Positions 582 through 53,893 are shown, numbered from the whole stretch's first letter. The stretch is 59,753 nucleotides of DNA, filler included, from Porpidia crustulata (GCA_964255105.1; 10 parts of 10 records of this genome joined end to end with filler, not necessarily neighbours in it), one strand, 5' to 3'. Notes: generated from the sequence alone by a model not told the origin. Program-made: numbers and translations.

Positions 582-3548
582 TTACATCAACGTTGCACTT
601 AGAGGTAGCTTCCGTGACGAGCTCCCAACATATACCGTTTTCGGGCTCTTCGATATCACCCAGTTCTGACTCATCGTGTCCCAATTCGACACATCGCGTC
701 TTAAAATGTCAGCACGGAAAGTTGCAGACTGTCCTGGTTGAATGGATAGTCGCTCAAAGCCACGGAGAACGACTTTGGGATCGTAAGGGCCGCCGAGAGA
801 AATGTACATCTGCGCGACCTCCTCACCAGCGACCTTTCCTGTGTTGGTGACGGTGGCGGTGACCTTGTACAAGACATCGTAGAGTTGTGCGTTACCTCCA
901 GGTGCTCCACCAGCAGGCAGCAAAGGCTGTGGCGAACCATCCTGGGAGCCGGCCGGAACAAAACCCGGGAGTGCGTAGTCGGTTTCATTGGCGGACGCTT
1001 TGAGGTCTGTGAAGTTAAGGTATGGGTAAATGTAGATTGGAACACGTTCAATATTCTTCGGGAAGAGGTAGTCAGCGGTGTTGTTGGAAATACTACCGAG
1101 AGTTGGTGCTGGACCGGTCTTGCCAGTTGTTGGCTGGTAGGGAGCGGCTGAGGTCTTTTCGACTTTCAAATCCGAGTATCCAAATGTAGTGTAGCTCAAC
1201 CCGTAGCCGAATTCGTAGGTCGGGGCAATGCCTCTTTGGTCGAGGCTGCGGTAGTCGATGAAGACTCCTTCCGTGAAATCTTGTTGAGGAGCGTTCATAC
1301 CCGCGTTGGGCGCGTATAGCAAATCAGTGCCGAAATCCTCACGGCGAGCAGCCATGGTAAAAGGAAGTTTGGCCCCTGGGTTGAAACGTCCATATAGAAC
1401 GTCAGCAATGGCATTGCCAGACTGTTCGCCTGGAATACCGGCCCATAAAATGGCTGTAATGTTTGGGTTGTCCGCATACTCTTGAATGAGAACCGCACCG
1501 ATGGTGTGGAGAACAAGTATAGTGTTGTTGCACAAGGCGGAAACATTACGAACCAAGGTATCACCGCCTTGCCACAGGGTAAGGTTTTTGCGATCCCCCT
1601 CATTACCATCCACAACAATGTAACCCTCACCGCCATCAGCGTTTGCAAACACTATCGCAGTGCTAGCTGCACTGGCGAGAGCTTGAATCTGTTTGCTGGC
1701 AAAATTATCTGTGATAGATTGGAAGGATCCAAGGTTATTCAATACCTCGTTTTGAATAGTAGTCTCGGGTGTAACGAGGTAGGGAAAATTCGCAGTCCCA
1801 CTTCCCCAGCCCATGGCAAGAGTACCATTGTCGCAACCCCGGTCAGAGCAGCCGTTGGGGCCATCCGGGGCACTACCTGCGTCATTACCGAAGACTGCTG
1901 TGAGCTTCTCTTTTCCAGTCAAGGGCAGTGCATTGTTAGTGTTCTTCAGCAGAACAGTACTTGCACATCCAATTTGACGGATGAGGTTTCCGTGTTTGGC
2001 GCGAACGTCCACGTGCTCGTTGATTGTTGTGTAGCCCATCTTTGCAAGGAAATTCTCGGGACCATACGTATCTGGAGACCACGAATCGAAATTGATGGGG
2101 ATTTGAGCCTGGTCGCGTCCAACGTAGTACCAAGCTGCTATGATACGTGTGGCCATGTCATCAAGACGCCATTGGGGGATAGTGCCATTGAGGACGGCAA
2201 CCGTGAGGTTCGCACCCCAGTATGAAGTCCCTGAATCGAAGGTCACATCGCCGGGCATGGTCATATCCAACCCGGCTAATGCACCACCAACGCCGGAATG
2301 CTGCGCAGCCCAATCACTCATGATAAACCCTTGAAAGTCAAGCTCGCCCTTTAGTATCTTGTTGAGCAGCTGGCTATTCTGGCAGCCGTAACTGTTATTC
2401 ACTTGCTGGTAAGAGCACATGATGGATCCGACACCGGCTCGGACAGCATCGGCGAAAGGCCTGGGATAAATTAGATCACGTCGGGAACATCTGGATGCAG
2501 TGTAAATACCATAGGTACAGCTCATGCATCGTAGTATCGTCGATGTTTGAGCTGAGGCTGTCGGTAATATTGTAGCCATGGTCGTGAGCTTCGGGAGCTT
2601 GACGGAAATGCTCCTGCTCATTGCCAATATAGTGCTTGGCGCATGCCATCACACCCTTGCTCTGGATGCCCTTGATGGTCTGAGCCATCATGATGCCCGT
2701 CAATGCAGGATCGGGGCTGCAATCACTGATTAGCTTTTGCGAGTGATTGAGCCAAGAGTGATTGAGGCAAGTTCGTAACATGAGCTTACCTGAAGCCTTC
2801 CCAGTTGCGACCTCCTTCAGGTGCACGGCCAAGTGGACCGGCGACTGGACCCAACTGTATATCCACGCCCTTTCCCTGGTGCTCGGCTCCCATAGCTTGA
2901 CCACGGGCGTATGCGAGACCGCGATCAAATGTGGCAGCAACATTTACGCCGGCTGGAAACGCAGAAACGTAATCGGCTGTTCGATTATCAGCCATCAATT
3001 GCAGACTCTGGAACATCGAGTAGCATACCGAACCTGACTCCGAGAGGGGAATCTTGCAAGCACATGCTGCGGAATCCCAGTCGAGGGATAGCACCATTTT
3101 GCCCAACACAGCGCTCTCCTTCCCATCTGTAAGGCACATATCAATATCCCGATCCTACGCGTGCTCTCCAATTGTGTACATACCCAACTCCAGTGGTTAG
3201 ATTTACCTTCTCAAGCAAAGTGAGCTGCTTCACGAAGGTCCGAGCTTTGGTATACGCATCTTCCCAATTCCCGGCCCCTGTACCCCACGGCGATGGGTAA
3301 TAGGGTTCTGATGTTGGTTGGCCGGGGACTCCATCTGCGACTGGGTCCGGCGAGCTCGCGCTGGGATAAGTTGAATTTGGAAACTAACAGGGCATCGTGA
3401 GAAGCTGTTGAATTGATAATTGACTGATGCTACCGCTATTTGATGATTCAAATGGGCAATGACTTACTGGAGCAGTTGAGTTGCCATTCTGAGCGCTGAC
3501 AAGATTTGACGCCACAAGCATCAACGGCACAAGCGCGGTACGCCACAT
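582..3548 (-). CDS. bglA: Secreted GH3 beta-glucosidase (BglA/BGL1 type), multi-exon, complete
   Basis: ATG at 3548 gives a signal peptide ([19 protein letters not shown]). Exons read [56 protein letters not shown] (catalytic Asp) and a C-terminal FnIII-like EEVAQMY...LRGFE. Stop at 582-584. Confidence 0.93.
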
Positions 3549-5213
3549 CCTGAGATCCGATTCAAGCTAATTGTTGGTGGGGCAAAAATAACAATGAGAA
3601 CAATTACGCTTGTAGACAATAGGATTTATCCGTTTTTATATTAATGATAAAGAGGTGTTACTCATGATGAATGACAGACATATGTAGTGATTCACGGGCA
3701 AAGAGGGTGGGTGGAGTACTTTTATGTAGTAATGCATCATTCGTGCCTGCCCACATCTCAATACTAATACTCGTCATGCTGCTGTATCCTTCCACCCCTC
3801 GTATACTAGGAAGGTACCTAGCAGCGAGCATTGTTCATATGATTCTTTCTGAGTAAGGATTGCCGGTGCAAGCAGGGCAACAGCCTTCTCGGTAAGCTCG
3901 GACAAATTCGCACAGAGACAGAGCCCCGCAATTCGTTCGAACTTTCTTCACATAAAGCTGCTTTACCCCGACACACCATCAAGCCTGGTGAAAGTAGTGT
4001 ATTTAGGATGAGCACTTGGATTCAGGAAGTGTCAAGGCAGGCTCGAAGTTTCACCGAAGACCGAGGGGAGTTAGGGGACTAACAGGCTTTTAAAGGCAAT
4101 CATTATGACATGACGCAATTTCGTAAATAGCCTCGCGCTCTGTGCTCTCGCTCGGGGCCCCTACCGGACATGACAGGGCCACTCATCTCCCAGATCTCTT
4201 CCAGTTCTCCAATTCCAGCAGGTTGTCCTGCATAATAAAATCCCAATTCTCCCGCAAACTTTTGTCTTGCTTCAGGAACGCATTCCGTCCTCCAGGTACA
4301 TTGGTCATGCACCCCGCATTTGCTGGGATCCAAGCTGCCGAAAGCGAAATCTCCTAGCATGCCAGAGACGCACCGTTACTTCCTTCAGTCGTACTGCTAG
4401 TGCCAATGCAGGAAAAGCCGAGATCTTGGAGATGGGCTCAACTAATAGGCAATTTGATCGAAAGCCTTCCGCAGAGGAACGAGATGCTGACTGCAGACTG
4501 CACCGCAAATGCTGCTTTAAACGGCTCAGGGAATCGGGACTCGGAATGAGGAGGGTCTCTAATATGATCGGGAGGGCTCTTGATGTTCGACGTTAGCTTT
4601 CAACGTCGGTTGAGTCGTCAGCCATTGACATCTAATGCTACCTAATCTGACATGCTTAGCTCTTCCTGGATTAGCGGATTAAAGTTCCTTGCAAAAATTG
4701 TATCGTGAAAGTCACCTTCAGTGTCAGTGCCAGTGCCAGTGCCAGTATATTCCGGTATGGTGACTGGTAAAGGATCGATAAGAAGCTGATCGCTGCGTCT
4801 TTCGCGTCTTCTAAAACCACTCTAGGGGTGATCATAGTCTAGTTCTCAATTTCTGTCCATGAAGTGCAACCTACCGGAGAAATTTTGGATTGGCTTTTCT
4901 GGTAGAGAACATACATGACGAAGGTACACAGATGTCACTTCACAGCTATGAAGTAAACCGAGGTTTGTTGTGTCTTGCCTGCCGATCCTGGCTCTGTAGA
5001 ATTGGCCACTTCATCTCTCGCACTTCCGAGCACAGCTTGACTGTATATCAAACCCCCGGCTGCAAAATTCATCAATCTATAAATTCCCTATCATCTATAC
5101 ACAATGTAGTATCTACCCGTTGGTGCATTGAGAATTGTCATGTATTATTGTTGGCATGAGAGAGCTAGCAAGTCGTGTTAAAAACAGCCTGGCATATGTA
5201 CTGGAAACGGGAC

Positions 5214-5440
5214 CACGCGGGTGAAGAAAAAAATGAGACTGAGTAATAAACGTCTTCGGGCGCAAATTTGCTAACAAATTTCGCAACTATTTGATTATAT
5301 CACGAAATCACAGTCATTTCACTGACAGACTATCAAATAGATTGGGTTTCCGTTGATTTATGAAAATTCGTCAGCAACTTTGGTGAGGTTTCCCCCAAAG
5401 ACGTTTATTGCTCAGTCTCATTTTTTTCTTCACCCGCGTG
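5214..5440. mobile_element. MITE (non-autonomous DNA transposon), 227 bp, 43-bp TIRs, 5-bp TSD GGGAC
   Basis: 5214-5256 (CACGCGGGTGAAGAAAAAAATGAGACTGAGTAATAAACGTCTT) matches the reverse complement of 5398-5440 at 42/43 positions. GGGAC directly flanks both ends (5209-5213 and 5441-5445). The interior is AT-rich and non-coding. Confidence 0.9.
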
Positions 5441-5915
5441 GGGACTTAAAAATGTCGGGATCGTTGTTTCAAGAAATGCCGAGAACTTAGATATCTCTAG
5501 TTGCATCACTCATCAAAATATATATATTCTTTCCATCATAAATTTACGTATTGACTAATACTCAGTAAATGTCGTCTTCAGGACTTGCTTCTGCTGTGAG
5601 TTTCTTTTCTTCACACCTTCGACGCTTGTCAATGAAGTGTAGCGGCATCCCAAGCGACGTATGACTAACATCGACTCCCATATCTGCTTTCCCTTGACCA
5701 TTCGCCTCGCTCTTGTTGTCATCGGCGCCGAAGATGAGAATAGGAATGAGGTCTGAGGGTGAAAGTGAAGCATTGCTCGAAACACTGCCTGGAACAACTT
5801 TTCACTTTTCTCTTGGCCGTTCTCGAGGCGTGAACTTTGATACAAGCGGAAAGGACAGAGGCCTTTGAACTTAACTATATCAGATTAGAAAAGTAAGGGG
5901 GTGGGAAGAGGTGGA

Positions 5916-6015
5916 NNNNNNNNNNNNNNNNNNNNNNNNNNNNNNNNNNNNNNNNNNNNTTAATTAATTAANNNNNNNNNNNNNNNNNNNNNNNNNNNNN
6001 NNNNNNNNNNNNNNN
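5916..6015. other. Artificial contig linker (N44-TTAATTAATTAA-N44)
   Basis: 100-nt spacer with a palindromic all-frame stop core, identical at nine positions. Confidence 0.98.
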
Positions 6016-6536
6016 TCCCCTTAGTTTTCCAACCTACAGTCAAAATACCCCCAAATACACAATCCCATGAACCGTCATAGAAACCCTTGATCAAAATCTT
6101 CAATCTGACCGCCAAACCCCAACTCGCTGGTTTGTTGCTATGCTAACGCAAGGGAGGGAGACCTAAAAAACACGAGGAGAAGACGACGCTCAAAACCTTG
6201 GATGATGATGCGCTGCGTTAGGGTTATGGATGGATGAGGGTGTGCTATATTCCGATCGACGCCCGCCCGTGTATTGACATCATTGGATATCTTGGTGGTA
6301 GTGGTGTATGTTCTCTTGAGGTTTGATGCGAACATTTTTATACGTCGTGCTCATGCGGAAGAATTTGGAAACGCTGCACTTAAAGTGCTGGAATATGTTC
6401 AATTTGGACATGTGCTTGTATGTCTTGTGATATTTTGCAGACAGGGGTTTATTGGACTGGTGCTCGTTTGGGCGTTTGTAGAAGGAGTGGAATTATGCTG
6501 GGAAGGCGCAGTGACCCGAAGTGGAATACGAATGGC

Positions 6537-8937
6537 TCAAAAAACGTCTTCAGGCCACTCATAATCTTCCTTTTGAATACCAGGCAAGGGCTTGTCTGCA
6601 TGTTTGGCAATCCTTTCCTTGCTGTTTGAAAGAGACTCCGGTAGCGGAGCCACAGTATCATGTCCTTCGGAATTCATCGTCGCTGTATCGTCATCTTCCT
6701 TGGGCGCCATCCTAGGCGACATCCTCTTCGGAGAGACCAGACTAGGCGGCGGTGGAGAGATCCCACGCTTCACCATCTTACTCCGTGTCTTCATTGGCGA
6801 CGTAACCGAAGGTGGAACTCGAGTCTTATTGGGAGATGCAGAAAGTGGAGGTGCGAGGAAAGGAGAGGCAGGACGGTCCTGGTGAGAAAGCGACTTGTGA
6901 TCTGTCTTCTTCTTGTTGTGAGGAAGGTTGTTCATGTAGTCGATTACTTGAGCTTCAGTCATGGTAGGGTAGAGGACGCGTAGGTTGATGGCATCCACGG
7001 AAATCCTACCAAATGGGATATTGCTGTTGGAGACTGAACGCAACGAAAGTACCTTGGCTTGATCGATTCTGCTAGGATCAAAGACCTCTGGCATCGTAGG
7101 AAGTGGAGGCACAGGATCTAGAGTCTTCCGTGACGAAATCCTTCGTGGACCATTTGGCGTTACATTTCTTCCATGCCTGGCCTTACTCGACTCAATAGCA
7201 ACACTTTCCTCAATTTTTTGAGACTTTCGAGAGCGTACTGAGCCTTTGTTGGCAACATCCCATTTAATTGGGTCGATAACGGAATCACTTGTGTCTTCTT
7301 CGTGGTTTGGGTTGTATAGAGCGTCAACGCTTTTACGCTTCCTTGACATGGGCTCTCTCGAAACCGAAGATCTAAGCTCACTTTGAAGCTGGGAATTGGC
7401 TTGAGGTGTGAGGTCGCCCACGTATGGGCCTGTCTCGCTAGGTTTATCATCATGAAAGCTCTCCTCTTCCGGAACATTACTGGTATCATGGCTTTGTAAA
7501 ATCCGCTGTGATGGAAGCGAAGGAAGTGCACCAGGCTTGAAAGGTTTCAAACCTAGCTTGGATGGCTCATGGAGCCCTTCGAGTTCTCGACGAGCCTTGT
7601 CCAGTTTCATTTCCAAGTCACTTACTTTCATGGTTAACTTTTGTTGTTTCACTAGATCCTTCTTCGACGGCGAGTTTCGCAATGGCTGTGCAGCTGTAGC
7701 TGTGTTCAACTCATCACCAAATTCGATGGAAGGTAAGGGAAGCGAGACCTCGGACTGCACTATCTTTGTCGGTAACAAGTGAAAGTGCGATTTGACTTTC
7801 TTTAGGCTTTGCAGAGAGGGTTTATGAAGTGTTAGGGATGATCTACGGCCGGAGTTCCTAGTAACCATTGGACTTGGAGAGCGACCTGATCTGGGTACCG
7901 GTGGAGGTGGCATTAGTCCTTGAACCGGTGCAAATACCTGGTAGTCTTTGCTGTGTTCTGTTGATGACCGGTACCCGTCCATGTCGATTCCCGAGTCTCG
8001 AAACTCGGGCTTGCAAGGGGCTTCGTCGACATCATCATACCTGATGGTAGGTAATTCTACGCTCGCCCGCTGCTTTGAAGGAGCCTTTGTCCCTTTGAAA
8101 CCACTATGCTTCAATTCTGCATAGGTCTTTTCTGCCTTGGCTTGTCTCTCTTGCAGGATGTCCTTTTCTGGGGACTTTATCTCCTCTGTCTCTTTCCACA
8201 TGCCATTGAATCCCTGCCACACGTTTGCCGGGTTAAAAGCATTGACAATGGCTTTTCCGAAACGAAACATGCTTGAATGTTTCGATGAGCTAATGCTAGC
8301 ATGATGACTAAAATCTGCATCTAGAATACCAGTATCTCGATTTTGGACGTGGCCTCCGGCCTCAGTAGGCGTCAAAAAACGAGCCATGGCCTCTTCGTCA
8401 CGCGTGTATAGGCTAGGTGGTTTCTTACTGGCTCGGTCGTTCATGCTTCCCTCTTGAAATCTTGAAGGTCGAGATATATTGGAGGACGTCCTTCTGTATT
8501 GAGGTGAAGTCGACTTCCTTGCTGACTTGGAGGGTCCTTTGCGAGTGCTGTCCGGCTCAGTTAAGGGTTTGAGGGACAACTCTGACACTCGGGTTCGCTT
8601 GGAGATGTGTAATTGATTGCTGTCATTGTCGCCTCGTACAGCCGAAGCCTTTACATCCTCATATGTGGTCGAAGGGTTGTGACTGAGAGGTCTCTTCCGA
8701 GAATTATTCCCGGGACTTGAAATTGATTCATTTGGCGGGGGCACTGCATTCAAATGTAACAGCGAGGACTTTCTTCGACTCTGAGGAACATCATATTGAA
8801 TCTACGATATCGGCATTATGCGATTAGTTTATAGTACTATACGAAGGGCTCATTGCAGCGGATGTCGTCTGCACAGTAAGACACACCTTCGGACCGGTAG
8901 GTTTCCTTGCCCCTGAACCGTCTTTCTTCGGAGCCAT
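6537..8937 (-). CDS. Conserved fungal Ser/Pro/Lys-rich, largely disordered protein with a central coiled coil; function unknown
   Basis: 738-aa ORF extended by exon 1 (8887-8937, MAPKKDGSGARKPTGPK) through intron 8802-8886 (GTGTGT...CTAAT...TAG), in frame. Motifs RPSRFQEGSMNDRASKKPPS and KVSDLEMKLDKARREL; ends EDYEWPEDVF. Confidence 0.75.
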
Positions 8938-11928: not shown

Positions 11929-12028
11929 NNNNNNNNNNNNNNNNNNNNNNNNNNNNNNNNNNNNNNNNNNNNTTAATTAATTAANNNNNNNNNNNNNNNN
12001 NNNNNNNNNNNNNNNNNNNNNNNNNNNN
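11929..12028. other. Artificial contig linker
   Basis: N44-TTAATTAATTAA-N44. Confidence 0.98.
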
Positions 12029-37888: not shown

Positions 37889-40800
37889 ATGGCTACCATC
37901 AAGGCTCTTGAAGGCCGGACCGTAAGCTGATCAGCTCCGTGCCTGGCGTGAAGTCACAAAAACTAACACAGCCATTCCAGGTGCATCAAATCCAGTCTGG
38001 GCAAGTCATCGTGGACTTGTGTTCCGTGGTGAAAGAGTTAGTGGAAAATAGTTTAGACGCCGGGGCGACATCAATCGGTGGGTGAAAGTACTGGAATGTG
38101 GCCCCCAACACTGTAGGCATCAACCCTGATCAAGTGGCAGATGTGCGCTTTAGAAACAATGGACTTGAAGCTATTGAAGTCCAAGACAACGGCATAGGGA
38201 TATCAAAGGAAAATCATGAGACCATTGGCAAGTATATTCCATTCTCATAGAGAAAAAAGGAGCTCATTTGGTTGGTAGCACTCAAGCACTATACCTCCAA
38301 GCTTTCGAGTTACGATGACCTCACATCTTTACAGACGTTTGGTTTCCGAGGAGAAGCTTTATCGTCTTTATGCGCACTCTCTAGCTTCCACATCGTCACC
38401 GCCCAGGCCGACGAGGCTCCCAAGGGTACCAAACTCGACTTCGAGACCTCCGGCAAGCTGAAAGATACCCAAGTGGTAGCCAGTCAGAGAGGGACTACTG
38501 TGGCTGTGGAAAACCTTTTCATAAACTTACCTGTGCGTCGAAGAGAACTTGAGAAGAACATCAAGAGAGAATATGGAAAAGTCTTGGGCGTGCTCCAGGC
38601 CTATGCTTGTATCAGTACACAGGCCAGACTCTCCGTAAGCAATGTGATGGCTAAGGGTAAGAAAGCTATCGTCTTTGCTACTAAGTCTAATCAAACAACT
38701 CGAGAAAATATTGCCAATGTATTTGGTGCAAAAGCATTAGTGGGATTAGTGATGATGGATCTTAAGTGTGAGATTCAGCCCACTAAGAGTCGGATTCAAG
38801 GATGGACTGCACAAGCAGATACAGAGTAAGTGCGGATCGCCACCCAAATCGAGCCTTATATTGAAGTTTATGGTTAGGAATAAGCAAGTCTGCGTGGTTG
38901 GGCATGTCTCACGTCCCGTCTTTGGCGAAGGTAGACAAGCACCCGATCGTCAGATGTTTTTCGTCAACTCAAGACCTTGTTCACTGCCACAAGTTGCCAA
39001 GGTGTTCAATGAAGTGTACAAGTCCTACAATCTCTCCCAGTCACCGTTTGTATTTGCGAATATAATTCTAGATACCAGTACGTATATAAATCCGAAATCA
39101 ATGTCATTGGCTGACGGACAAGATGCTTATGATGTGAATGTGTCACCGGACAAAAGAACGATTTTTCTGCACGATCAGAATACTCTCTTGGAAACGCTGA
39201 AGGTGAGATAGTATATGTAACAGCATAGACAATTCCTGACCTTTACAGACATCTCTGACCAAGCTATTCGAGAAGCAAGAGCAGACCGTTCCACAAACGC
39301 AGCGGCACCTCCCAAAGCTATCAATTAAGCAGCTTACTATACGTCGAGAGGCTTCAAGCATTGACGGAGAGGATCCCTACCAAGATGGCGAAGATATCGA
39401 GCCATTGAGAGGTGCTTCTTCTCAAGCAAGTAGCGAAGGAGATGAATCAGACACGGAGGTGCAGGCTGCGCGAGCCACGGGTCTGCTAGCAAAATTCGCG
39501 GAACGAGATACAATGGCCCGGACTAGCAAGCCTCCTACCTCTGTAACAGCGAACAATGATGGTGCGCCGACGAAAGACAAACAAAAGCTCATGAAAATAC
39601 TTGGTAAAGAAGACAAAGGTAAGTCTCAGACCAATGGATGTAACGAACGCCCCGATGCGTTGGAGGCGCAGGTACCGGCGAAGTTTCGCCCTGTGCTCGA
39701 CTTTAATGAAAGGTTGGCGGAACAGCAAGGCGCGGGTTATGAAACCCCACGAGAATCATCCAGAGTAGAAGACGAAGAGGAAATTGCCGTATCGCAACCT
39801 TCGCCGATTAAATCATCTCCTGGAGTCGTACGGGCTGCTTTTGATCGAATGCGACCCCGGCGTGATCCTGTAGAAGTAGCAACTATAACCATTGGCTCAA
39901 AGACGACAATATCACCCTTGCGGCCAATATCTACTATGAAAATGAGAACCAAAGAAGCGTCCTACGCTTCTCCTAAGGCCAGATCTGGCGCAAAAAGCTT
40001 CTCAACACAAAGGATCAGCAGAAGAATCAAGGCGTTCACTGCCCCTGGAGCACAAGCTGAAGCATCCCCCGGTGCTTCACCAGATGAGCTCGACCTGGAC
40101 GAACAGATAGATAGTGAGAGCGCCAGCGAGTCAGAAGAAGCTGAGAATGTTGAACAATCAGACTCTAGTGATGAGCAATCAGAACAGGAAGAGGCGAAAA
40201 GAGCAGTGCTAGAGACTTTGGAAGCTGAGAGCGACGAGTCGGGGTCCGACCCAGCATCAGATACCGGCTGTGAAGACAATGATGGGGACTACCTGGATGA
40301 AGAAAGTAAAAAAGCTGGAGAAGATGCCCGAGTTATCGAGTTGATACAATTAGCTGAAGATAAGTCAGCACCGGCTTCTCAACATAGGATTAAACGTGCG
40401 TCTCAATTACTCAAAGGTGGCGGGCAGAAGGACGCGACCACAAGCTTGATCCAGGTAATCCAAACGTCGTTGGAACGCATTGAGTCGCAAATGCAGTTAT
40501 TGCAGAAGGCAATACAAGATGCTTCAATGGAACAACGTCGGCAGGAGCAAACAGCTCCGTTAGCAGATGACTCCCCCGAAGCCGTTCTCTCGCTCACCGT
40601 CTCCAAAGATGACTTTTCCCGGATGCGCATAATCGGCCAATTCAATCTTGGCTTCATCCTCGCAGTCCGACCCTCGTCCAAAGCTCAATGCTTCGAGCCC
40701 AATGCTTCTTCAGATCAGCCAACCAAAACGAATATAAACTCTGGCGACGAACTTTTCATAATTGATCAACATGCCTCGGACGAGAAGATAAACTTCGAGC

Positions 40801-41348
40801 GTCTTCAACGTGTCACCACTCTCCAAAACCAGCGTCTCGTGTACCCAAAACCCCTGTCTCTTACCGCCATCGAAGAAGAAATCATCCTTGAAAATCAGCC
40901 TACTTTAGCCCACAATGGTTTCATAGTTGCCGTCGACACCTCCGGCGACAAACCCGTCGGCAGTCGCTGCAGTTTACTCTCTCTACCTATGAGCAAAGAA
41001 GTCACCTTTGATCTGTCCGACCTCGAGGAATTGATCACTTTACTTGCCGAGTCGCCCCCTATATTATCAACCTCCACCTCCACAGCAAACACTCTCGGCC
41101 AGTACATCCCTCGACCCTCAAAAACACGCCGCCTCTTCGCCATGCGCGCTTGCCGCTCAAGCATCATGATTGGCAGACCGTTGTCGCGGTTGCAGACGGA
41201 GCGGTTGGTGAGGCGTATGGGCGAGATTGAGAAACCATGGAATTGTCCACATGGGAGGCCGACGATGAGGCATGTGCTTAGCTTAGCGAATTGGGAAAGC
41301 TGGACGGAAGGAGATGGGGGTCGTCAGTCTGGACAACGGGAACGTTGA
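37889..41348 (+). CDS. PMS1: MutL-alpha mismatch repair endonuclease subunit Pms1 (PMS2 ortholog), multi-exon
   Basis: MATIKAL...VHQIQSGQVIVDLCSVVKELVENSLDAGA, GFRGEALSSL, GQFNLGFI, DQHASDEKINFE (endonuclease motif), ACRSSIMIG, PWNCPHGRPTMRH. The true C-terminus may extend to 41564. Confidence 0.95.
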
Positions 41349-41966: not shown

Positions 41967-44900
41967 GAATACAACAGGCTGCCATTATTCCAGAATCCAC
42001 TCCAGCTTTCTAGAATGCCAGAAGCCGGCCTCGAGATATTGGGGGAAAGGATAGGGAACTGGAAGGTTCTCCTGTCCCCAAAAGTCCTCAAGAGCATCCA
42101 AAGCTTGGGTCACTCCGGTTCAGTCTTTCCTATACACCAATATCTACCAACCTAAAGTACTGACAAGTAGAATAGGGAATTTTGGACCTATCAAAGGGAA
42201 GTTGCGTGATCTGGCGTCCGGATCGTGGTCTTACCATCTCGCCGGCACTTAACAGGAAAGGAAGCGGATAAGAGTTCCTCTTGCCACCACACGATGCAAT
42301 TCGCAAATCTTCATTTTGTGGCAAATTGACGTTGCATTAGATCATACGACTCAGACCGAGAGTCAGCTGGTCAAAGTTTGGGAGATCGGCGTCAAAACGG
42401 AGGTATTGCAGTCCGTCGGTCGTATCATCCTACTTCCAGATCAATACGTGATCGACCATGTCGCGCGATGTCGTCAGAGACCACGGGAGGATGCTGACAG
42501 AAAACTCATTTCAACGCTCTTCCCTGACTGTTCTGGTACTGCAAAGCCTGGAGCGGAACGGCAAGGGCTGGACATCCGGACGGTTGATCGAGAAGTCCTC
42601 GATATGGCTAACCGTTTCTACACCCTCACTGAACCGATGATCCACTCGGTTCTGGCCAATGACCTTTTGGCAGAGTTCCCTTTTGACTTTTCTGGAGACG
42701 AAACACATGTCATTCTTCACGATGGTACTTCCAGTCTAATCTTAGGTCGGAGTGGTACAGGAAAGACAACATGTCTTGTGTTCAAGCTACTCGCAAAGTA
42801 TGCAGCCGGCTGTGCCGCCGCAGGGGAGCGATCGCCAAGGCAGTTACTTTTCACGAGATCATCTGAGCTTGCTGCTAAACTCAAAGACTACATTGGCAGG
42901 CTGATGAAAACATTGGCAGCGAACACTTTGACCAAAGCGAGCAGCAGGAGATAGAGTTTCAGTCGCCAGTTGTTGAGGATGACAATAACCATTACGACAC
43001 TATTTTGCAATTGCAAAACGACTCGTTCCCCCTTGTTTGTTCATTCGATCGCTTTCTACAACTCTTGGAGAACACTATTGAAAGTGTGAATCAGAAAGGG
43101 TTTCCTGCCACAGATCATGACGATTATGCCCTGCACAAAGAGCAATCGGACCAGTCGGATGATCACTTGAACAGAGAACATCTACAGTGACAATCATTAT
43201 TGAAGGACTCGATCACTCAATTTTTTGACTTCCAGTCTTTCAGGTTGGACTACTGGCCAAGATTCCCAGCCGCTCTCGTCAGAAACATTCCTATTGAACT
43301 TGCTTTCGCCGAGATTATGGGAGTAATCAAGGGCTCTGTATCATCTCGAAGGACGCTTGAACCTCTCTCTCGTCAAGCATACTTGAAGCTAAGTAGTAGG
43401 ATGGCCCCAAATTTCACCCTCGAAAGCGAAAAGTCCCGAGTCTATGACATATTCGAGAAGTATCACATCTTAAAGCTTCGCCGACAGGAATTAGACGGCG
43501 TAGACCGTGTGATAGAACTGATTAAAGCAGTAAGGGAAAATCAGAAACTCCAGAATTATCTTGAGGCTACGTTTGATGAGATCTACATCGATGAAGTACA
43601 AGATCTGCGATGCCTCGATATTGAGTTGCTATTAAGCATAATTAATCAAGGTCACGCATATCATTTCGCCGGAGATACTGCACAAACTATTTCGCAAGAC
43701 TCCCACTTCCGCCTTCAAGACATTAAGACACTATTCTACGACCATTTTGCCGATGCAGCCTCACGGATGAATCGGCCTGAGCTCGCGCAACCTGAGTTCT
43801 TTATGTTGCCAAAGAATTACCGCTCGCACCAAGGCATCCTCGGTCTAGCATCCCTTGTAATGGAGATGTTGTGGAACGGGTTTCCGGAGACCGTTGATAA
43901 ACTCGAGCCTGAGGTCGGACAAATTCATGGGCCGATCCCTATCTTTTTTTTGAGTTGCAACGTCCAAATGCTGGCAGCAACTGATACGCGTCCCACCGAC
44001 CAGCCTGAGAGAAGTCTTGACTTCGGTGCCGAACAAGCAATCATCGTGCGTGACCAGAGTACTAAAGCCAGACTCCAAGCGGATTTGAAGGACAAGGTTC
44101 TGGTGCTTACCGTTCTTGAAAGCAAGGGCATGGAATTTGAGGACGTCTTCTTGTGGAACTTCTTCACCGACTCTCCCTACCCTAGCGGTTGAAGGTGTGC
44201 GGATAGCTCAATGACCAAATCCGGAAACTTTGACTCTACAAAGCACGCCGGAATGTGTTCCGAGCTGAAGCAGTTTTACGTCATCATCACCAGAGCACGT
44301 ATCCACTTTTCAATCATTGAGAGCGAAGAAACCTTGGCTGCACAAGTGGCAAACCTCCTGAAGCAGAGTACGTCATCACCCTTGGTTGAAGTGACGACTT
44401 CATCCGATCCGGGTTTTCTCAAAGACCTCATCTCTTTACGATCCATATCGCATGATCCTCAAAGATGGTCTGACAGGGGGAGGGAGCTGACGCAGCGCAA
44501 GCAATATGATGATGCTGCTATATGCTTTCGCAGAGCAAAAGACGAACGCGGTGAGGCTTGTGCAACAGCATATATCTTCGAGGAGAAAGGAAGGCGCTTG
44601 AATTCGATTAAGGATGTTGAAGTAGCCCGTGGTTGCTTCCGGTCCGCTATTCAGAAGTTCCTGGAATTAGACATGGTCGCAGAAGCGGTCCGCAATCTTG
44701 AGAGAATGAAAGAGTACAAGGAAGCGGCTTGGCTGTGGGCTAAATATGGAAAGCCTGGTAAAGCAGCACCGTTGTCCGCAACATCACGCATGTTTTGTGA
44801 AGCTTCAGAACACTACCACCAAGCTCTCAGCTACGATAAGGCAGCAGATACCCTCCGGCACGGCGGTTTGGCTGAGGAGTTGGTGTTGTATGTCACAAGG

Positions 44901-47659
44901 AATCAAGAGAAGCTGAGCTTAAGCGGCTTTAAAAGTCATCGCCGTCTTTGTATCCTCCTCCTGAAACAAGGAAAGATAAGTTCTAAGCTCCTCGCACCAG
45001 CGATTAAAGTGCTCGGGTTCGCCACCGAACAAGAGCACGCTTTCATTGGGTATGAGATGCATGATCAACTTGAGGACCTCTACGTAGATCAAGGGAAGTT
45101 CAAAGAGCGCTTTTTACTCCTTTCCCGAACCGGAAAGCTTGGCCGTGCGTTGAAAGCAGTTGGCGATCTTAGTAGCTCTGATACTAGAGATCTTCAAGGT
45201 ACTATCGGAACAATCCAGAACTACTATTCTGCTGGCCCAATCGTCTGTCCACGCTTCGATGATGTAGTCGTTTCAGTTCATCTTCGATCCACGAACTCTG
45301 ACTGGATTTACGCTCAGCGATTGATCACAAGTAAACGGAGAAATCGCATCTTTGATCAGGTAAAAGCAATGAAAGACGGAGAAGTCAAAAATTTTCTTCA
45401 GCTTCACGCACTTCTCAACTTTGGACTAGTCAATCACATATCGATCCTGAATAAGATCCCGTTTGAAGCCATTGAAGCAGCTTCCAGGAAGGCCGAGATC
45501 ATTTCTTCGCAATCCGAAAGTATCAACGATTCACTCATCTTGTTGCTCACTGAAATTATGAAAGTCGATCATGAGATCAAGCCATTTGTTCTACTCCCTT
45601 GAGCTCCTTTTCACAAGTGTGCGGCGAATGTCAACATCAATGAGTATCCAAGGCTAGCAAAGCAGTGATTTCTGCATGAACTGAAACGTACCATGCTTTC
45701 GCTGAACGCAATACTAAGAAAGCTATGGAAATCCGAGTGACCAGTGAGATATACATATTTCTCAACTCAAGGATTCTGCAATCGCCACAAAGACCGCAGC
45801 TGTCTTGATCTGCACGAGAGAGTTAAAGCGTCCGATTGTAATCAAAAGATATCATCCTTGATCAAAATCAACGCCGCTTTCTGTAATCTCACAGGCATGT
45901 ATCGCAAGAAACTTATGAAAGGATATTTCCAAGAAAGATTTTCTGGGCTTAGACATTATTGGCTGAAGAGCCTTCTTGAAGAATTGATATTCGTTTTCTC
46001 GTTCGACCAATGTGCGCAGGCTATTGCCGAAGCCCAATCCAAAATTTTCGATAATAAACAGAATCCACAGCAGAACAAAAGACTATCCATCATTGCCGCC
46101 AGTATTGAAGACCTTTTGTTTCACAGGTTGGGCAACGGCTGAACGGAGAGAAACGATCTCTCTTCTTTAATTGAACAAATTAAACTCTCACAAATGCTTG
46201 ATACATCCACCTCTGTTCATCCCTTTAACGATACATCAACTGACCTGATCTAGACTATGACGTTCAGGATCGATTTGCCCGATGCCTCTCTTACAAGCTG
46301 TACAGATCTGCAGACACGCAATTTCAACGATACCAATTATGAACACTTCAAAATCTCGAGAACAACATGAAAACCGCAGATGCTCCCGCATTTCAGGAAA
46401 GCCTTCGGCAATTCATATCTCATCTTTCCCTTGTGGATATCGATCAGATTTTGTCTTTTCATGCCATGACGGCTGTCTTCGAATTTCTCACCACCTATCT
46501 GATTTTCCGCTCATGTCCTGTCGCTGTCCTCATACTGCAGTCTTGAATAAGCATTCATCTGCCCTGATTTGCTCACGTTGAGCAATCTCCGCTAAGAGAA
46601 GAACTATCTGATCGCGACATGCAAACCTATGCAAGTAGCCTACTTGAGTTGACTACACGCTACTGCCAGCTTCTGTCATACCTTGAATTGCTCCCAGATC
46701 ATGAGTTCCATTTTGATACGAGCTACTATCCATCTCGTCTTCTACATCGGCGAAACGTAGAGCTCCTTGCCCTTGTCATTGTCAATCTGGGATTTTACTA
46801 CGGCAGAATGAAGACCTTCAGAGAAGTGTGGAAAAGAGTGTCTAAGATACGTGTGATTCCTCAGGTTTATCAATGCAGCTTTTGATTAAAGTAGATCTTT
46901 TCGCTTTCTCACTTTCGGGATCTTTATCTTCGTCATGATACACTGCGCGAGCTGTTAGAGAATCTCGTCAAATCCTACGAAGCCTACAATGACAAGGACT
47001 GCCTGAAGTTCGTCAAGAAGACTGACGGCGAACATATGGCTGCGAGCATGCTACAGAAGCTCGATGTACAAACGATTTCACTAGCTGAGCTCGTTTTCAC
47101 AACTTACGCGTCTCGCGAATGCCCGCAGGCCTTATCATCAAGTGAGACTGAGGCGCAAGACTTACGTCGCTCGGAAGCAGTTCAGAAAATCCAACAATTT
47201 TGACGATCTCACCATTCGAAATTACTAGCAAGGAAAGCCTTCTTCAAGATACCCGTAGGTAGAATATACATCCGCGTCACAGAGATTTGCAAGTATAGCG
47301 CCGCATTCAAGATGATGCGCTATCTTCTCACAGACTACGGAATCGAGCTTCTCGAGAACGTTCGCAGTATGAGCAGCACAGCATTCGAGCTTCAACAGCG
47401 AGCAGTCAATCTACTCAGTAGTCTTTCACAAGGGCAATTCGAGCAAGTCGATGAGATTATACAGCGAGTAAGCAGCATCGAGGAATCGCTGGAGAATGTC
47501 GCCAAAACTATTTCTATGGATCGCCTTAAGGAAATCGCAAAAGAAGAGCTCAACGGCGCGCAGCGATTATTCCAGGATGCTGGCTTCAAGCTTGAAGGAG
47601 TAGCAAGAGGTATGCGTGAGGCTGCAAAACTGATGGAAGCTATCGAAGAAATAGATTAA
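41967..47659 (+). pseudogene. TRANK1-like UvrD/SF1 helicase-TPR gene, inactivated; 5' end beyond contig
   Basis: SF1 motifs GRSGTGKTT, IYIDEVQD, AGDTAQTI, NYRSHQGI, SKGMEF, YVIITRAR, followed by TPR-like helices (YDDAAICFRRA). Ten in-frame TGAs, one TAA (42250), frameshifts near 42928 and 46426, and two AT-for-GT splice donors. Confidence 0.85.
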
Positions 47660-47832
47660 ATGTGCGGCAGAACGACTTCTGTGACGAGAAAAGGCCTAGA
47701 GGGTAGAACTAGACCCGACAATGATTTTCGTTCATCATCCCTCACACATCATCGCTTCCAGCACCATCACCCAGCATCCCAATCTTCATCACCCCTACCC
47801 AACGACCATCCCTATTCACCATCCCTATCCCC

Positions 47833-48904: not shown

Positions 48905-51900
48905 ATGGCGAGCTCTCCTCCAACCTCCCCGCTGGGGTTACCTCGGCGGCCTATGAGCGCAATGTACAGAAGTACGAGTCGCATGAGCATAAGTAGTAAA
49001 CAAGGTGGAGGGAGCAGAGCTTCCGATGAAGATGGATCCAAGACCTCGGTCAAAGTCGGTAGGTGCAAGACCGTCTGGCTGTTGAGCTGTTGAGAGTATA
49101 GAGACGAAATATACTGAACATCGCCCTCACAGCGGTGCGAGTGCGTCCACCTCTCCAATCAAGTGATGCGGGCTTCGACTTGATCCCGCAACGGTTCCAA
49201 CGATCCATGCTCCAAGTGATATCTCCCACCAGCTTGGCAATCAATGCACCTCAGGGCCGGAAGTTGTTCGTTTTTGACAGGGTGTTTGGGGAGGAGGTCC
49301 GGCAGGAAGGAGTCTGGGAATATCTCAATGAAAGCGTCGATGCTTTCGTCCAAGGCTATAACGTGTCCGTGCTTGCTTATGGTCAATCCGGCTCCGGCAA
49401 ATCATATACCATGGGTACTTCGGGCCCTATCGAACAGGGTGATTCACGGATTATGGGTAGGTGATTCGGATTGAAAATCGGCCAACTGCCGAACCCTGCA
49501 TATCATAACCCTACGATGGCGATCCCTGGCTGACCTAAGGTGTTTCCAGGCGTAATCCCCCGAGCGGCTGGTGTTTTGTTTGATAAGCTCTCTGGACCAC
49601 CGACGTTGAAACGAAATGGATCATCTGCTCTCAGAACACCAACCCGCTATTCCATGGGAGCTGCTCAGAATCTTACAACGCTGGCAAAGACCGGCGGAGA
49701 TAAGAATTGGCAACTGAAAGCTACCTACGTCGAAGTAGGCTCCTCCTATGAAATCTGCCTATTGGTGCTAATTATCTTAGATATATAACGAACAACTACG
49801 AGATCTTTTAGTCCCAGAAAACGTCCCACAAGGTGAACGATCAACTGTAGCCATTCGCGAAGATACCAAAGGCCGCATTCTTCTGACTGGGCTGCACCAA
49901 GTTGATATCAATTCTGCCGACGACCTGCTGAGTGCTCTGAATTTTGGCTCCTCAATCCGCCAAACGGATGCCACCGCCATCAACGCAAAGTCCTCTCGTT
50001 CGCATGCCGTCTTTAGTCTGAACCTTATCCAGCGCAAGAATACGGCGCAACCGATATCGGCCCGAGAGAAGAGATTCTCGGTACCACTGGAAGCGATGTC
50101 CGGTGCGGAGAATTGGGTAACAGTTGATAGCAAGCTACACTTTGTAGATCTAGCCGGTAGCGAACGACTCAAGAACACTGGGGCAACCGGAGCATCTGCA
50201 AGGGAAGGTATCTCCATCAATGCTGGTTTGGCGAGTCTGGGAAAAGTAATCTCGCAACTATCATCCCGCCAATCCGGATCCCACGTCTCTTACCGAGATT
50301 CCAAGCTCACTCGCCTTTTACAAGACTCTCTCGGTGGTAACGCAATCACGTACATGGTTGCCTGTGTCACAACCGCCGAATTTCATCTTAGCGAAACCCT
50401 AAACACCGTGCAGTACGCCCAGCGAGCCAGAGCAATCCAAAGCAAACCCCAGATTCATCAAGTCTCAGACGAGAGCGACAAGCAAGCTGTGATTGATCGT
50501 TTACGGGCTGAGGTTTCGTTCTTACGCGACCAAATTTCGAGTACTGAGCGAGGAGATCGACGAAGCAACGGAATGCAGGACAGAATAGAGCGCCACAATG
50601 AGCGCGAAATTGAGCTTCAAAACGATCTTCTCAACGTGCAAGAAAACTACACCGCACTGAGCCAGCGCCACGCCAAGCTTATATCTGAAATCACAAAGGC
50701 GAGAGACGACGAACCTGGAGAGACACCAACGCTTTCCGGAGCCATCGGAGACTCCGCGGTTGAAAGACTCAAACGATCCAACTCGTTTGCAGAAGCTGTG
50801 GAACAGGTGGTACTCGAGTACGAGAAGACTATACAAACGCTAGAAACCTCTCTTTCCGCCACGAGATCTTCCCTGTCAACAACGGAAAGCAGCCTAATGG
50901 AAAAGGAATCAAAATTTGCATACGTCGAGACTGTCAATCAGCAACTTCAAAATCGTCTACAGAAGATGATGGACCGAGAATCTAGCACCGAGAGGTATTT
51001 GCATGATCTGGAGTCGAGATTGGATGGGCATAATACTGGCGAGGAGAAGACTTCGACGGTTGTGATAGAACTTCGCAAGGAGATCGCCAGGATTCGAGAG
51101 AACGAGGCGAGTTGCGAGGAGTATATTTCGACCCTGGAAGAGCGCTTAGCCGAGTCGGATCAAGATATGGAATTGATGCAGCGGGAAGTCGATCGCCTCG
51201 AGCATGTGGTTGAGCGCCAGAGAAGCCTTGGGAAGCTTGATAATCTCCTGTACGAGTTTGATCATGGAAAGCAAAACAACGAACCTTTGGGAAAGAGCCC
51301 GTCCAAGGGTTTACCAAATGGCTTTGCGAAACCAACCAATGGGATCAGGTCCGAGCGTGGCCTGGCTGACTCGGCTCTTGAAGAAGCGGCAGAAATTCCT
51401 ATTCCAGATTCGGACGACGAAGAGTGGGAGCGGGTGTCGGGAACAAGATCGGAACCTAATGGAGACGGTCTGGCTGCAAAAGAGACGAACGTTCCTGGCT
51501 CGAAAACGGTCACTCCATCAAACATTTCTCGGCAAAGCCCTGCCCAGACGGAATTCGTGGCCGACAAACTCGACATCGTGACTCGGGAACTCGTCGATCT
51601 CCGTGTCGAACACGAGTCAACTATGATCGAACTGGACATGATGTCAGCCAAATACGAAGAAGCTTTGAGGACACTCGCTGAACTTCAAGACTCTGTGGAC
51701 GAGGCACGTCATCCAGCTGAACTGCCAAACGTTGCATCCCCAGTCTCTACACGGCCGACGTCTTTTTTAGGGGATGCGAGGGTGAGCGAGCTCAGAGACG
51801 TGGAACACTTGCCATCCTCGCGCTCTCTATCATCGGAATTGTCCTTGGATGGGGACTCGGCAAGCTCAGTGGAGCCATACCCAAGCGAAGCCAACCTCAA

Positions 51901-53793
51901 CAAACTACTGCCTGGAACCATGGACCGTACCGTACATGGTGAAGAGACGCTGACTCGAGAAGTAGACCAGTTGAAGACGATATTGGTGGAGAAAGAACAG
52001 GCCTTGGCTACCATGAGCGACAAGTATTCGCAAATGGAGGCCTTGCATCTTGACACCCTCGACATTGTCGAAGAGCTCAGGGCAGAAGTCAAAAAGGCAA
52101 AAATGAACCCACCAAGCTCACCTACAACACCTGTCATCAGAAGAAAGGGCAGTGTCATGACCATCGACCGTGCTCACCGGTCGCTTGCATCATTGAAAAA
52201 CATAGCTGCTGACAACTTTGAAGACAAGCCGGATACCATGCAGAACTTTGAGCTGAATCTGAATACAGCTATGCACGAGCTACATCAAAGGTCGGAACGC
52301 GTACAGGTTCTCGAAGCTGAATTGGTAAGCTTGAGAAGGGAAATGGAGTCGAAGACAACCATGATCTCTGGCTTGACGAGGGAACGATCGAGTTTGAAAT
52401 CTTCGCCAATAGATATTTCGGTCGTGTCCACCATGCACGCCCAGCTTCAACAGAATGAGGAGCACATTAGATCGCTGCAAGAGACTCATACTTCTAGGGA
52501 ACAAGAACTTGCCGACGAGATCGAGTCTCTCAAGACGGCTCTTGACGAGCACAGGGAGACGGCGAAATCTGCTATGCCAGGATTTTTCCCAGAAACACCG
52601 GCTCCCTTGGAGCAACAGGAAAAGCAGCTGGGTCGCCCTGACGGACAACCTTATGAAGTGGGCAGACTTCGGGAAGAGCTATCAGTTATGGAGAATAGAT
52701 ACCAAGAAGTAGTAAAGTCAATGGAGGTTTCGGAGAAGGAGTTCATTGCGACAATTGCAGGATTAGAAGCATCTTTAGCCAATGTCGGAGCAATACATGA
52801 TGCAAGATCTAAAGAAATCCAAGTTGGTGAGGATGACAACGAACGAGCACTGAACGATTTGCGCCTCGAAGTCGACGAGCACAAGACGACAGTTGGCTCT
52901 TACGCTCAACGAATCGCCGAGCTCGAACAACTACATGCAGATACACGAGGGGAAATTGAAAAGGCCGCACGCTACAAGACTATGACCGAAGAGCAACTCA
53001 CATCACATCGTGATCAAATTTCCATACTTGACAGCCAAGTCCAGGAACATCAGTCGGCGATAGAATTCCACAAATACGGTCTAAAGTCATTACACGACTC
53101 GCATGCCAGGGATATTCAGGATCTACGCTCGACGTTGACGGCTGAGAAGAATACCGAATTGGAGGCACAAACACGGACCGCCACAGACGAATTGGAGATG
53201 CGCCACAAGGACATTTTGGCACATCTCGAGGAGATTACAGGTCTCAAAGCACAGCTCGATGAGCAGAATGCACTTGCTGCAGGGAAACAGGCGCAAATCG
53301 AGGAACTGAATACAGAACTTCAGGCCGCCAAAATCCTTGCAAGGGAGAAACAAGAGCAACTGGAGAACCAACTTGAGTTGAGCAACCACAAGGAAGAGCA
53401 ACGGCTGATTTCTCAATCTGTTAGTCAGGAACTAGAGCAGAAAGTTGCCTCGTTATCGACAAGCATCGAACAGGTCAGTGATGAGCGCGATCGAGCAACA
53501 CGGCTTGTGGAAGAGCTCGAGGAACAGATATCCACAAGTTATGACCACCAACGCGCTACGACAAGTAGACTTTCTGTGCTCAGCTCTGGCCGGGATCAAG
53601 CTCTTGTTGAGGCCAGCACAACCAAGGCAAAATTGGAAGAAGAGTTGGAAGAGACTCGTAACCGATTAGAGGCAGCTGAGGTGAGTACTTTCATCTTGTG
53701 TTCTCCGATGCCCACTAACGTTAATCCAGAACACCCTCCGCTCATACACGGACAACCACACCCAAGAACGCTCCAACTCCCTCACCTCCAACA
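48905..53793 (+). CDS. Kinesin motor protein with long coiled coil (probably kinesin-4 family), 3' truncated
   Basis: VRVRP, FVFDRVF, AYGQSGSGKSYTMG (P-loop), EIYNE, NAKSSRSHAVF (switch I), FVDLAGSER (switch II), HVSYRDSKLTRLLQDSLGGN, then over 1000 aa of coiled coil. Confidence 0.92.
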
Positions 53794-53893
53794 NNNNNNN
53801 NNNNNNNNNNNNNNNNNNNNNNNNNNNNNNNNNNNNNTTAATTAATTAANNNNNNNNNNNNNNNNNNNNNNNNNNNNNNNNNNNNNNNNNNNN
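53794..53893. other. Artificial contig linker
   Basis: N44-TTAATTAATTAA-N44. Confidence 0.98.

Follow-up and report, generated by a model that had tools for sequence, protein, structure and literature searches.

CpC-directed hypermutation in a UvrD-like helicase pseudogene of the lichen-forming fungus Porpidia crustulata and in an allele of its relatives

We analyzed a 59,753-nucleotide stretch of DNA from Porpidia crustulata (GCA_964255105.1), hereafter the window, which consists of ten contigs of 5860–5915 bp, arranged from longest to shortest with N44-TTAATTAATTAA-N44 spacers between them. One of these contigs carries a dead UvrD-like helicase copy of a lichen-forming ascomycete, and the 3' part of this copy is heavily altered by C>T changes at the first C of CpC dinucleotides, which read as G>A after a G when they lie on the other strand. 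The contig, the gene and its exons are placed as follows, with positions counted along the window.

41967..47832: contig with the helicase gene, 5866 bp, with an N44-TTAATTAATTAA-N44 spacer on each side
42015..47659, + strand: UvrD-like helicase pseudogene with a TPR-like C-terminal region (ortholog 1827 aa; Pfam)
42015-42117, 42176-46200, 46254-46846 and 46895-47659, + strand: helicase exons, the model having been checked on the ortholog L001

The frame reference for the window's copy is the intact ortholog L001, whose coding sequence of 1827 aa contains one stop, the terminal one. The read-through translation of the window's copy matches the Pfam families PF00580 (UvrD-helicase, E = 3.3e-10) and PF13361 (UvrD_C, E = 1.9e-9), so that both the N-terminal and the C-terminal domains of a UvrD-like (superfamily 1) helicase are present. 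A named full-length homolog, P0024 (1854 aa), shows the same arrangement of helicase domains followed by a weak TPR match. Of the 8000 candidates that the protein search scored, 210 matched at E ≤ 0.001; the top match is 78% identical, and the named matches come mostly from lichen-forming fungi. The lesions that interrupt the gene are listed below, the "main tract" being the heavily mutated 3' segment that is delimited further on.

43188..43190, + strand: TGA from TGG, outside the main tract; Arg in a few aligned proteins
44190..44192, + strand: TGA from TGG, outside the main tract, by ortholog alignment
45600..45602, + strand: TGA from TGG; the same codon is TGA in L005, L006 and L007 too
45666..45668, + strand: TGA from TGG; also TGA in L005, L006 and L007; Arg in a few aligned proteins
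45738..45740, + strand: TGA from TGG, by ortholog alignment
46140..46142, + strand: TGA from TGG, by ortholog alignment
46340..46342, + strand: TGA from TGG, by ortholog alignment
46544..46546, + strand: TGA from TGG, by ortholog alignment
46565..46567, + strand: TGA from TGG, by ortholog alignment
47201..47203, + strand: TGA from TGG, by ortholog alignment
46201..46253, + strand: intron with donor GT changed to AT; CTTG|GTACAT in relatives, CTTG|ATACAT in the window, a G>A after a G
46847..46894, + strand: intron with donor GT changed to AT; CAG|GTGTGT in relatives, AAG|ATACGT in the window, a G>A after a G
42250..42252, + strand: in-frame TAA from GAA, a G>T transversion and not of CpC type
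between 42927 and 42928, + strand: 1-bp deletion with frameshift, seen in the alignment and as a switch of frame between open reading frames (ORFs); not of CpC type

The original prediction, made from this sequence alone, described a GG>GA hypermutation that inactivates the helicase gene through ten in-frame TGA codons and two altered intron starts. All ten TGAs lie in the frame defined by L001, and that frame contains no TAA or TAG between 43188 and 47203, as had been claimed. Every one of the ten, thought to be former Trp codons, is TGG in both L001 and L004 (and in L003 as well at the two sites that it covers), and in an alignment of 18 proteins the six TGA sites within P0002 (large exon) stand in Trp columns. 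The two introns likewise begin G|GT at 46201 and 46847 in L001, L004 and L005. The 26 ancestral Trp codons of the window's copy now comprise 14 TGG, 10 TGA, 1 TTG, 1 AGG and 0 TAG; Trp-to-stop changes have therefore given TGA in 10/10 cases and never TAG (binomial p = 0.002). Their gradient toward the 3' end is real, with 8 of 12 Trp codons 3' of 45270 turned into TGA vs. 2 of 14 on the 5' side (Fisher p = 0.014). The TAA at 42250 and the deletion at 42927/42928 had escaped notice, both being upstream of the span considered. Hypermutation of CpC type is thus present as predicted, but these two additional lesions mean that it need be neither the first nor the only event that inactivated the gene. 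TGG is the hot trinucleotide of the process, and the consensus donor G|GT has a G after a G; hence the TGA stops and the G|AT intron starts. The CpC process accounts for all ten TGAs and both broken donors.

Comparative data come from a scan of metagenome contigs, which yielded 29 loci, seven of them (L001–L007) with the orthologous gene as DNA. L001, L002, L004, L005, L006 and L007 are 98.4–100% identical to one another; L005, L006 and L007, which belong to three separate assemblies, are the same allele (hereafter L005-7). L003, limited to the 5' 3.6 kb, has ~95% identity to the other six. Nucleotide identity of the window's copy is 83.4–83.7% to the six full-length loci and 87.2% to L003.

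The L006/L007 allele differs from L001, L002 and L004 by 83 private changes over 10,070 aligned bp. C>T and G>A account for 81 of them (37 and 44, respectively), with 79 of these 81 located at CpC. Within the gene, 45 of 608 CpC cytosines are changed in L005-7 vs. 0 of ~2250 cytosines in CpA, CpG and CpT (Fisher p = 1.5e-31), and the breakdown by trinucleotide in L005 is equally sharp, with 24 of 219 TCC sites changed and none among 226 TCG, 213 TCA and 266 TCT sites. This is where the CpC preference foreseen in the original prediction is cleanest. The base 5' of the mutated C is T in 42, A in 22, G in 10 and C in 7 of the 81 changes, an A occupies position +2 in 45 of 81, and the motif T[C]CA is changed at 24 of its 115 sites. 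The direction of change was set by outgroups: at 32 of the 49 private sites inside the gene, the window's copy has the L001/L004 base. Along the tract the C>T and G>A changes are interleaved (47 runs vs. 41 expected in a runs test); they reach from locus position 360 to ~9975, through coding sequence, introns and flanks, the gene itself lying at ~2571–8315 with about 47 CpC>TpC changes, and end within ~100 bp of a structural break relative to L004. Four of them are TGG>TGA stops (window coordinates 45303, 45600, 45666 and 45960). The ratio of nonsynonymous to synonymous substitution rates (dN/dS) for L005 vs. L004 is 1.34, indicating that the changes have not been filtered by selection, and the L005-7 allele is a fresh pseudogene.

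Neither of two controls has this pattern. In L003, which has 60 private changes, C>T and T>C are in balance (24 vs. 22), and 3 of the 24 C>T lie at CpC. Helicase loci of other fungi, compared in 29 pairwise matches, have ~1/5–1/4 of their transitions at CpC and many transversions besides. This group of fungi thus has a process of CpC>TpC hypermutation, and its mutation type, context and both-strand action are established, as is its recency in L005-7. L004 and L005-7 form a natural before/after pair for one light mutation burst, and the TGAs that are common to the window's copy and L005-7 are parallel changes at the hot motif (TGG when read from the opposite strand).

The window's own copy has the signature in diluted form. 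Relative to the L001/L004 consensus, which is 16% diverged and is a reference rather than its ancestor, the copy has 925 differences, including 431 C>T and 235 T>C. Two segments can be distinguished at its 3' end.

~45270..47743, no strand assigned: main CpC>TpC tract; the 5' edge is a change point and the 3' edge is the end of homology to relatives
47744..47832, no strand assigned: CC-rich, CATC/CACC-like simple-sequence tail, unaligned to relatives and without CpC depletion

The change point lies at 45273 (2-lnL support 45163–45513, log-likelihood ratio 26.5), where the rate of CpC change rises from 0.119 to 0.370; C>T is found at 94 of 252 CpC sites in the tract vs. 40 of 336 upstream. Taken by kilobase, C>T per CpC site is 0.13, 0.14 and 0.10 across 41967–44966, compared with 0.11, 0.14 and 0.09 per C in other contexts (39/316 vs. 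131/1172 overall, p = 0.55), and becomes 0.31, 0.36 and 0.35 across 44967–47832, compared with 0.15, 0.16 and 0.16 (97/286 vs. 164/1049, p = 5e-11). The motifs rank within the tract as they do in L005-7 (TCCA 19/34, ACCA 9/15), and both strands are affected (43 C>T and 51 G>A at CpC). Upstream of the tract only the hottest motif stands out (TCCA 9/34), an excess that fits a light spill-over, which would account for the two 5' TGAs at 43188 and 44190. The ratio (CC+GG)/(TC+GA) agrees: it is 0.378 over 44967–47659 vs. 0.632 in the same stretch of L001, 0.662 vs. 0.672 in the 5' part, and 0.537 for the whole contig vs. 0.71–0.88 in the nine other contigs, and the ten lowest 600-bp values of the entire window all fall within 45001–47600. 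Positions 47741–47832 contain 20 CC/GG vs. 14 TC/GA. The classical indices that detect repeat-induced point mutation (RIP) are negative for the contig (TpA/ApT 0.59; (CpA+TpG)/(ApC+GpT) 1.37). The suspected action on part of the gene thus takes the form of a bounded 3' tract, whose kilobase scale and sharp edge are established, as is the recurrence of the process at one locus in two lineages.

We propose that a RIP-type process with a CpC target made these lesions, a reading that we consider probable; the earlier suggestion of a RIP variant or deaminase with CpC preference, giving GG>GA on the coding strand, gains support from the ortholog comparison. At the DNA level, the first C of CpC becomes T on either strand; the favored context is T/A-[C]-C-A (T-G-[G]-A/T if read from the opposite strand), with T[C]CA, or TG[G]A, as the hottest form. 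In the helicase copy this hypermutation struck the 3' 2.5 kb (~45270–47743) and left lighter, scattered changes further 5'. The underlying activity would be a RIP-type genome defense, in which a DNA-methyltransferase-like enzyme deaminates cytosine in double-stranded DNA before meiosis; a duplicated segment would serve as the trigger, and CpC would replace CpA as the target dinucleotide of this lineage. A partial duplication of the 3' part fits the sharp 5' edge, with a plateau behind it, better than leakage from a neighboring repeat does, and leakage from beyond the 3' end is disfavored because the CC-rich tail is undepleted.

Several observations weigh against this proposal. A blastn comparison with the nine other contigs, which make up the remaining 54 kb of the window, found no further copy of this mutated stretch, and a protein search with the last exon returned no close partner, the best of 7 matches being 71% identical. 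CpC-type changes make up only 13 of the 53 polarized replacements at conserved residues of the window's copy, and in this copy C>T exceeds T>C in every context (ratio 1.4–2.2), so that the signature is diluted. The L005-7 tract fills nearly all of the compared DNA, the chance of seeing no change in positions 1–359 being 0.15. Finally, the evidence consists of assembled contigs rather than raw reads, L005-7 included.

The same CpC>TpC changes could come from an AID/APOBEC-like or other double-strand DNA deaminase that acts locally and independently of duplication, which we regard as unlikely. Enzymes of the AID/APOBEC type are steered by the 5' neighbor of the target, use a single-stranded substrate and leave strand-coordinated runs. 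In L005-7, the 5' base exerts a preference only and the changes are not clustered by strand. Local action during repair, recombination or conflict with another organism would nevertheless agree with the lack of a duplicate partner and with a 5' T/A preference besides the requirement for a 3' C, and the target dinucleotide is unlike every RIP context described in the passages that our literature search returned. On the other hand, the 3' neighbor is dominant (C at +1 in 79/81), which matches the CpN logic of RIP; the interleaving of the strands is the opposite of coordination; and the changes occupy kilobase tracts with a plateau and a sharp edge.

A genome-wide bias, as from ultraviolet (UV) light or a mutator strain, combined with ordinary pseudogene decay and no local hypermutation, is very improbable. 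Lichens are sunlit, CC is a dipyrimidine, and the C>T excess in all contexts of the window's copy is what such a bias would leave; UV light, however, causes C>T in TC dipyrimidines and not just in CC, and in L005 the TC sites before A, G and T are unchanged, as are all of the ~2250 non-CpC cytosines of L005-7. In addition, CC/GG depletion is lacking in the window's nine other contigs, the change point is sharp and lies within the gene, and the conversion of 4 of 26 Trp codons to stops would be a load that a living fungus could hardly bear genome-wide, which argues for local action.

A sequencing or assembly artifact, such as bases miscalled in a motif-specific way where cytosine is methylated, is in our view extremely improbable. 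Motif-bound errors may well appear repeatedly in assemblies made independently, and it is assembled contigs that were compared; against this, the change is present at only 9–37% of motif sites, an internal edge sharply bounds the tract of the window's copy, and assemblies that are apparently of one project (by accession series) carry the unmutated L001, L002 and L004. An independently made assembly of run X1 reproduces the window's contig as a 5853-bp contig at word depth 11.7 with zero differing letters, a match that is not independent support since X1 is the likely source run. Run X3 gave one 51-bp paralog piece, and nothing in run X2 of the same study matched.

The reading that the gene is functional, with TGA decoded as Trp through adenosine-to-inosine (A-to-I) mRNA editing (which would restore UGG, and GU at the donors), a TGA = Trp code or a suppressor tRNA, was considered after the parallel TGAs in L005 had come to light and has next to no probability: all ten stops are TGA at Trp codons, both donors also have A for G, two of the TGAs recur in another lineage (L005-7) and dN/dS vs. 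L001 is low, but conserved coding sequence of the copy is also broken by an in-frame TAA and a 1-bp frameshift, conserved residues have undergone 53 derived changes vs. 7 in the sister lineage, 14 Trp codons are still in the form TGG, and the G>A/C>T pattern is alike at nonsynonymous sites, introns and flanks, while the recurrence is explained by the common hot motif. Fungal A-to-I editing, moreover, strongly prefers a U before the edited A and would favor UAG, not UGA.

The state of the gene fits long constraint followed by loss. For the window's copy vs. L001 dN/dS is 0.29 (0.23 for L003 vs. L001), from which it follows that the lineage of this copy was under constraint during most of its past. 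Where nine more distant homologs have a conserved residue, 53 derived single-base replacements have accumulated in the window's copy vs. 7 in the sister lineage, and together with the TAA and the frameshift they mark it as a pseudogene of some age. L004 lacks 23 bp of a coding exon (window coordinates 45020–45042), which shifts its frame, and the protein collection contains truncated products of 957 aa and ~400 aa that match the L004 contig. The L004 deletion and the four stops of L005-7 indicate independent losses of the helicase in several haplotypes; the gene is evidently dispensable.

Downstream of the gene, three haplotypes run into three unrelated sequences: L001 and L004 part at ~9599, and L004 and L006 at ~10076. 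These junctions are a structurally unstable or mobile boundary that adjoins the hypermutated tract. Among nine ORFs in the L001 flanks, no Pfam family scored above its cut-off and no sign of a transposon protein was seen. Run X1 also holds two short, low-depth contigs (word depth 3.3 and 2) that match 46159–46226 and 46949–47022 at ~85–90%, one of which continues into sequence that resembles this intron in the relatives; the sample may thus contain another homolog or genotype at lower abundance.

The remaining features of the window lie on other contigs. The ten contigs are unlinked, and genes across a spacer are therefore no physical neighbors of the helicase gene.

5916-6015, 11929-12028, and so on to 53794-53893: spacers, N44-TTAATTAATTAA-N44
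39240-41348, + strand, separate contig: open frame with a MutL C-terminal dimerization domain (E = 1.3e-14), a probable mismatch-repair gene of PMS1/MLH type; its terminal TGA is followed by an in-frame acidic stretch
49781-53793, + strand, separate contig: long open frame that encodes a kinesin motor domain (E = 6.7e-60) and is truncated by the contig end

These findings bear on how genome defense is measured. RIP is regarded as directed at CpA, and genome surveys use TpA- and CpA-based indices, to which a CpC-directed form is invisible, and the contig studied here would score as "no RIP"; if the CpC form is true, the extent of genome defense in lichen-forming fungi would be misjudged. The motif also makes the process an efficient gene killer, since its hot trinucleotide is the sole codon for Trp and the consensus splice donor contains the target too, and single host genes, not only transposons, are lost by CpC hypermutation in wild populations. 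The locus contributes a polarized orthologous pair, an extended motif, a bounded tract in a host gene and the built-in targets TGG and G|GT, and the specificity profile of L004 and L005-7 offers a benchmark for a candidate enzyme, be it a RID/DIM-2 paralog or another deaminase. More tentatively, one may envisage a distinct RIP-type pathway of Lecanoromycete fungi, now active in nature, that would deaminate the first C of T/A-C-C-A in paired double-stranded DNA and strike host genes as well as transposons. The helicase locus was struck independently in two lineages ~16% apart; were this reading true, the reason would be that the locus sits on a segment that repeatedly duplicates or moves, as the three downstream junctions of the three haplotypes would suggest, and RIP would be systematically mis-measured in lichen fungi because the classical indices miss this form.

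Among the systems with which the helicase locus can be compared, restorative A-to-I mRNA editing corrects premature stops in Fusarium and Neurospora. It resembles the present case in having genomic A for G at Trp codons of otherwise conserved genes; unlike such genes, the helicase copy has a TAA and a frameshift, and its pattern at the DNA level extends into flanks and introns. APOBEC3 enzymes act on retroviruses, A3G by GG>AG and A3F by GA>AA changes. They share with the process described here a context-steered G>A change that turns TGG into stops, and they serve as a defense. A3G, however, changes the 3' C of CC on one single strand (GG>AG, giving TAG), whereas here it is the 5' C that changes (GG>GA, giving TGA), on both strands interleaved.

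RIP itself varies in context, with CpG in some Aspergillus, (A/T)pCp(A/T) in Magnaporthe and TpCpG in Microbotryum. The context thus varies by lineage in these variants and may include a 5' A/T preference, as here, although none of them is known to be CpC-dominant. CpC is the least used RIP context in Neurospora, where CpA is the target; of the 81 L005-7 changes, 79 are at CpC and none is at CpA, and TGG accordingly becomes TGA and not TAG. The earlier statement that Neurospora-type RIP would turn TGG into TAG is correct as dinucleotide logic (RIPCAL table). In the passages of the RIPCAL paper that bear on this point, CpC>TpC is listed only as one of four formal possibilities, and a kingdom-wide survey of 2025, as far as its matching passages go, describes a common CpA preference for RIP-like defenses. 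The contig also departs from the classical RIP thresholds quoted in the literature (TpA/ApT > 0.89 and (CpA+TpG)/(ApC+GpT) < 1.03), with values of 0.59 and 1.37. A full-text literature search, which covered matching passages outside subscription journals, gave no report of CpC-dominant RIP, and the CpC-directed RIP-like process would be a variant not previously reported in the literature so searched. RIP as such has been reported in lichen-forming fungi, according to passages found in the same search. In its other traits the process at the helicase locus resembles the RID- and DIM-2-dependent RIP of Neurospora crassa and other Pezizomycotina: only C:G>T:A transitions occur, on both strands; they fill kilobase tracts with an edge; the target is chosen by the base 3' of the C; and the mutations, unfiltered by selection, kill genes by stop codons.

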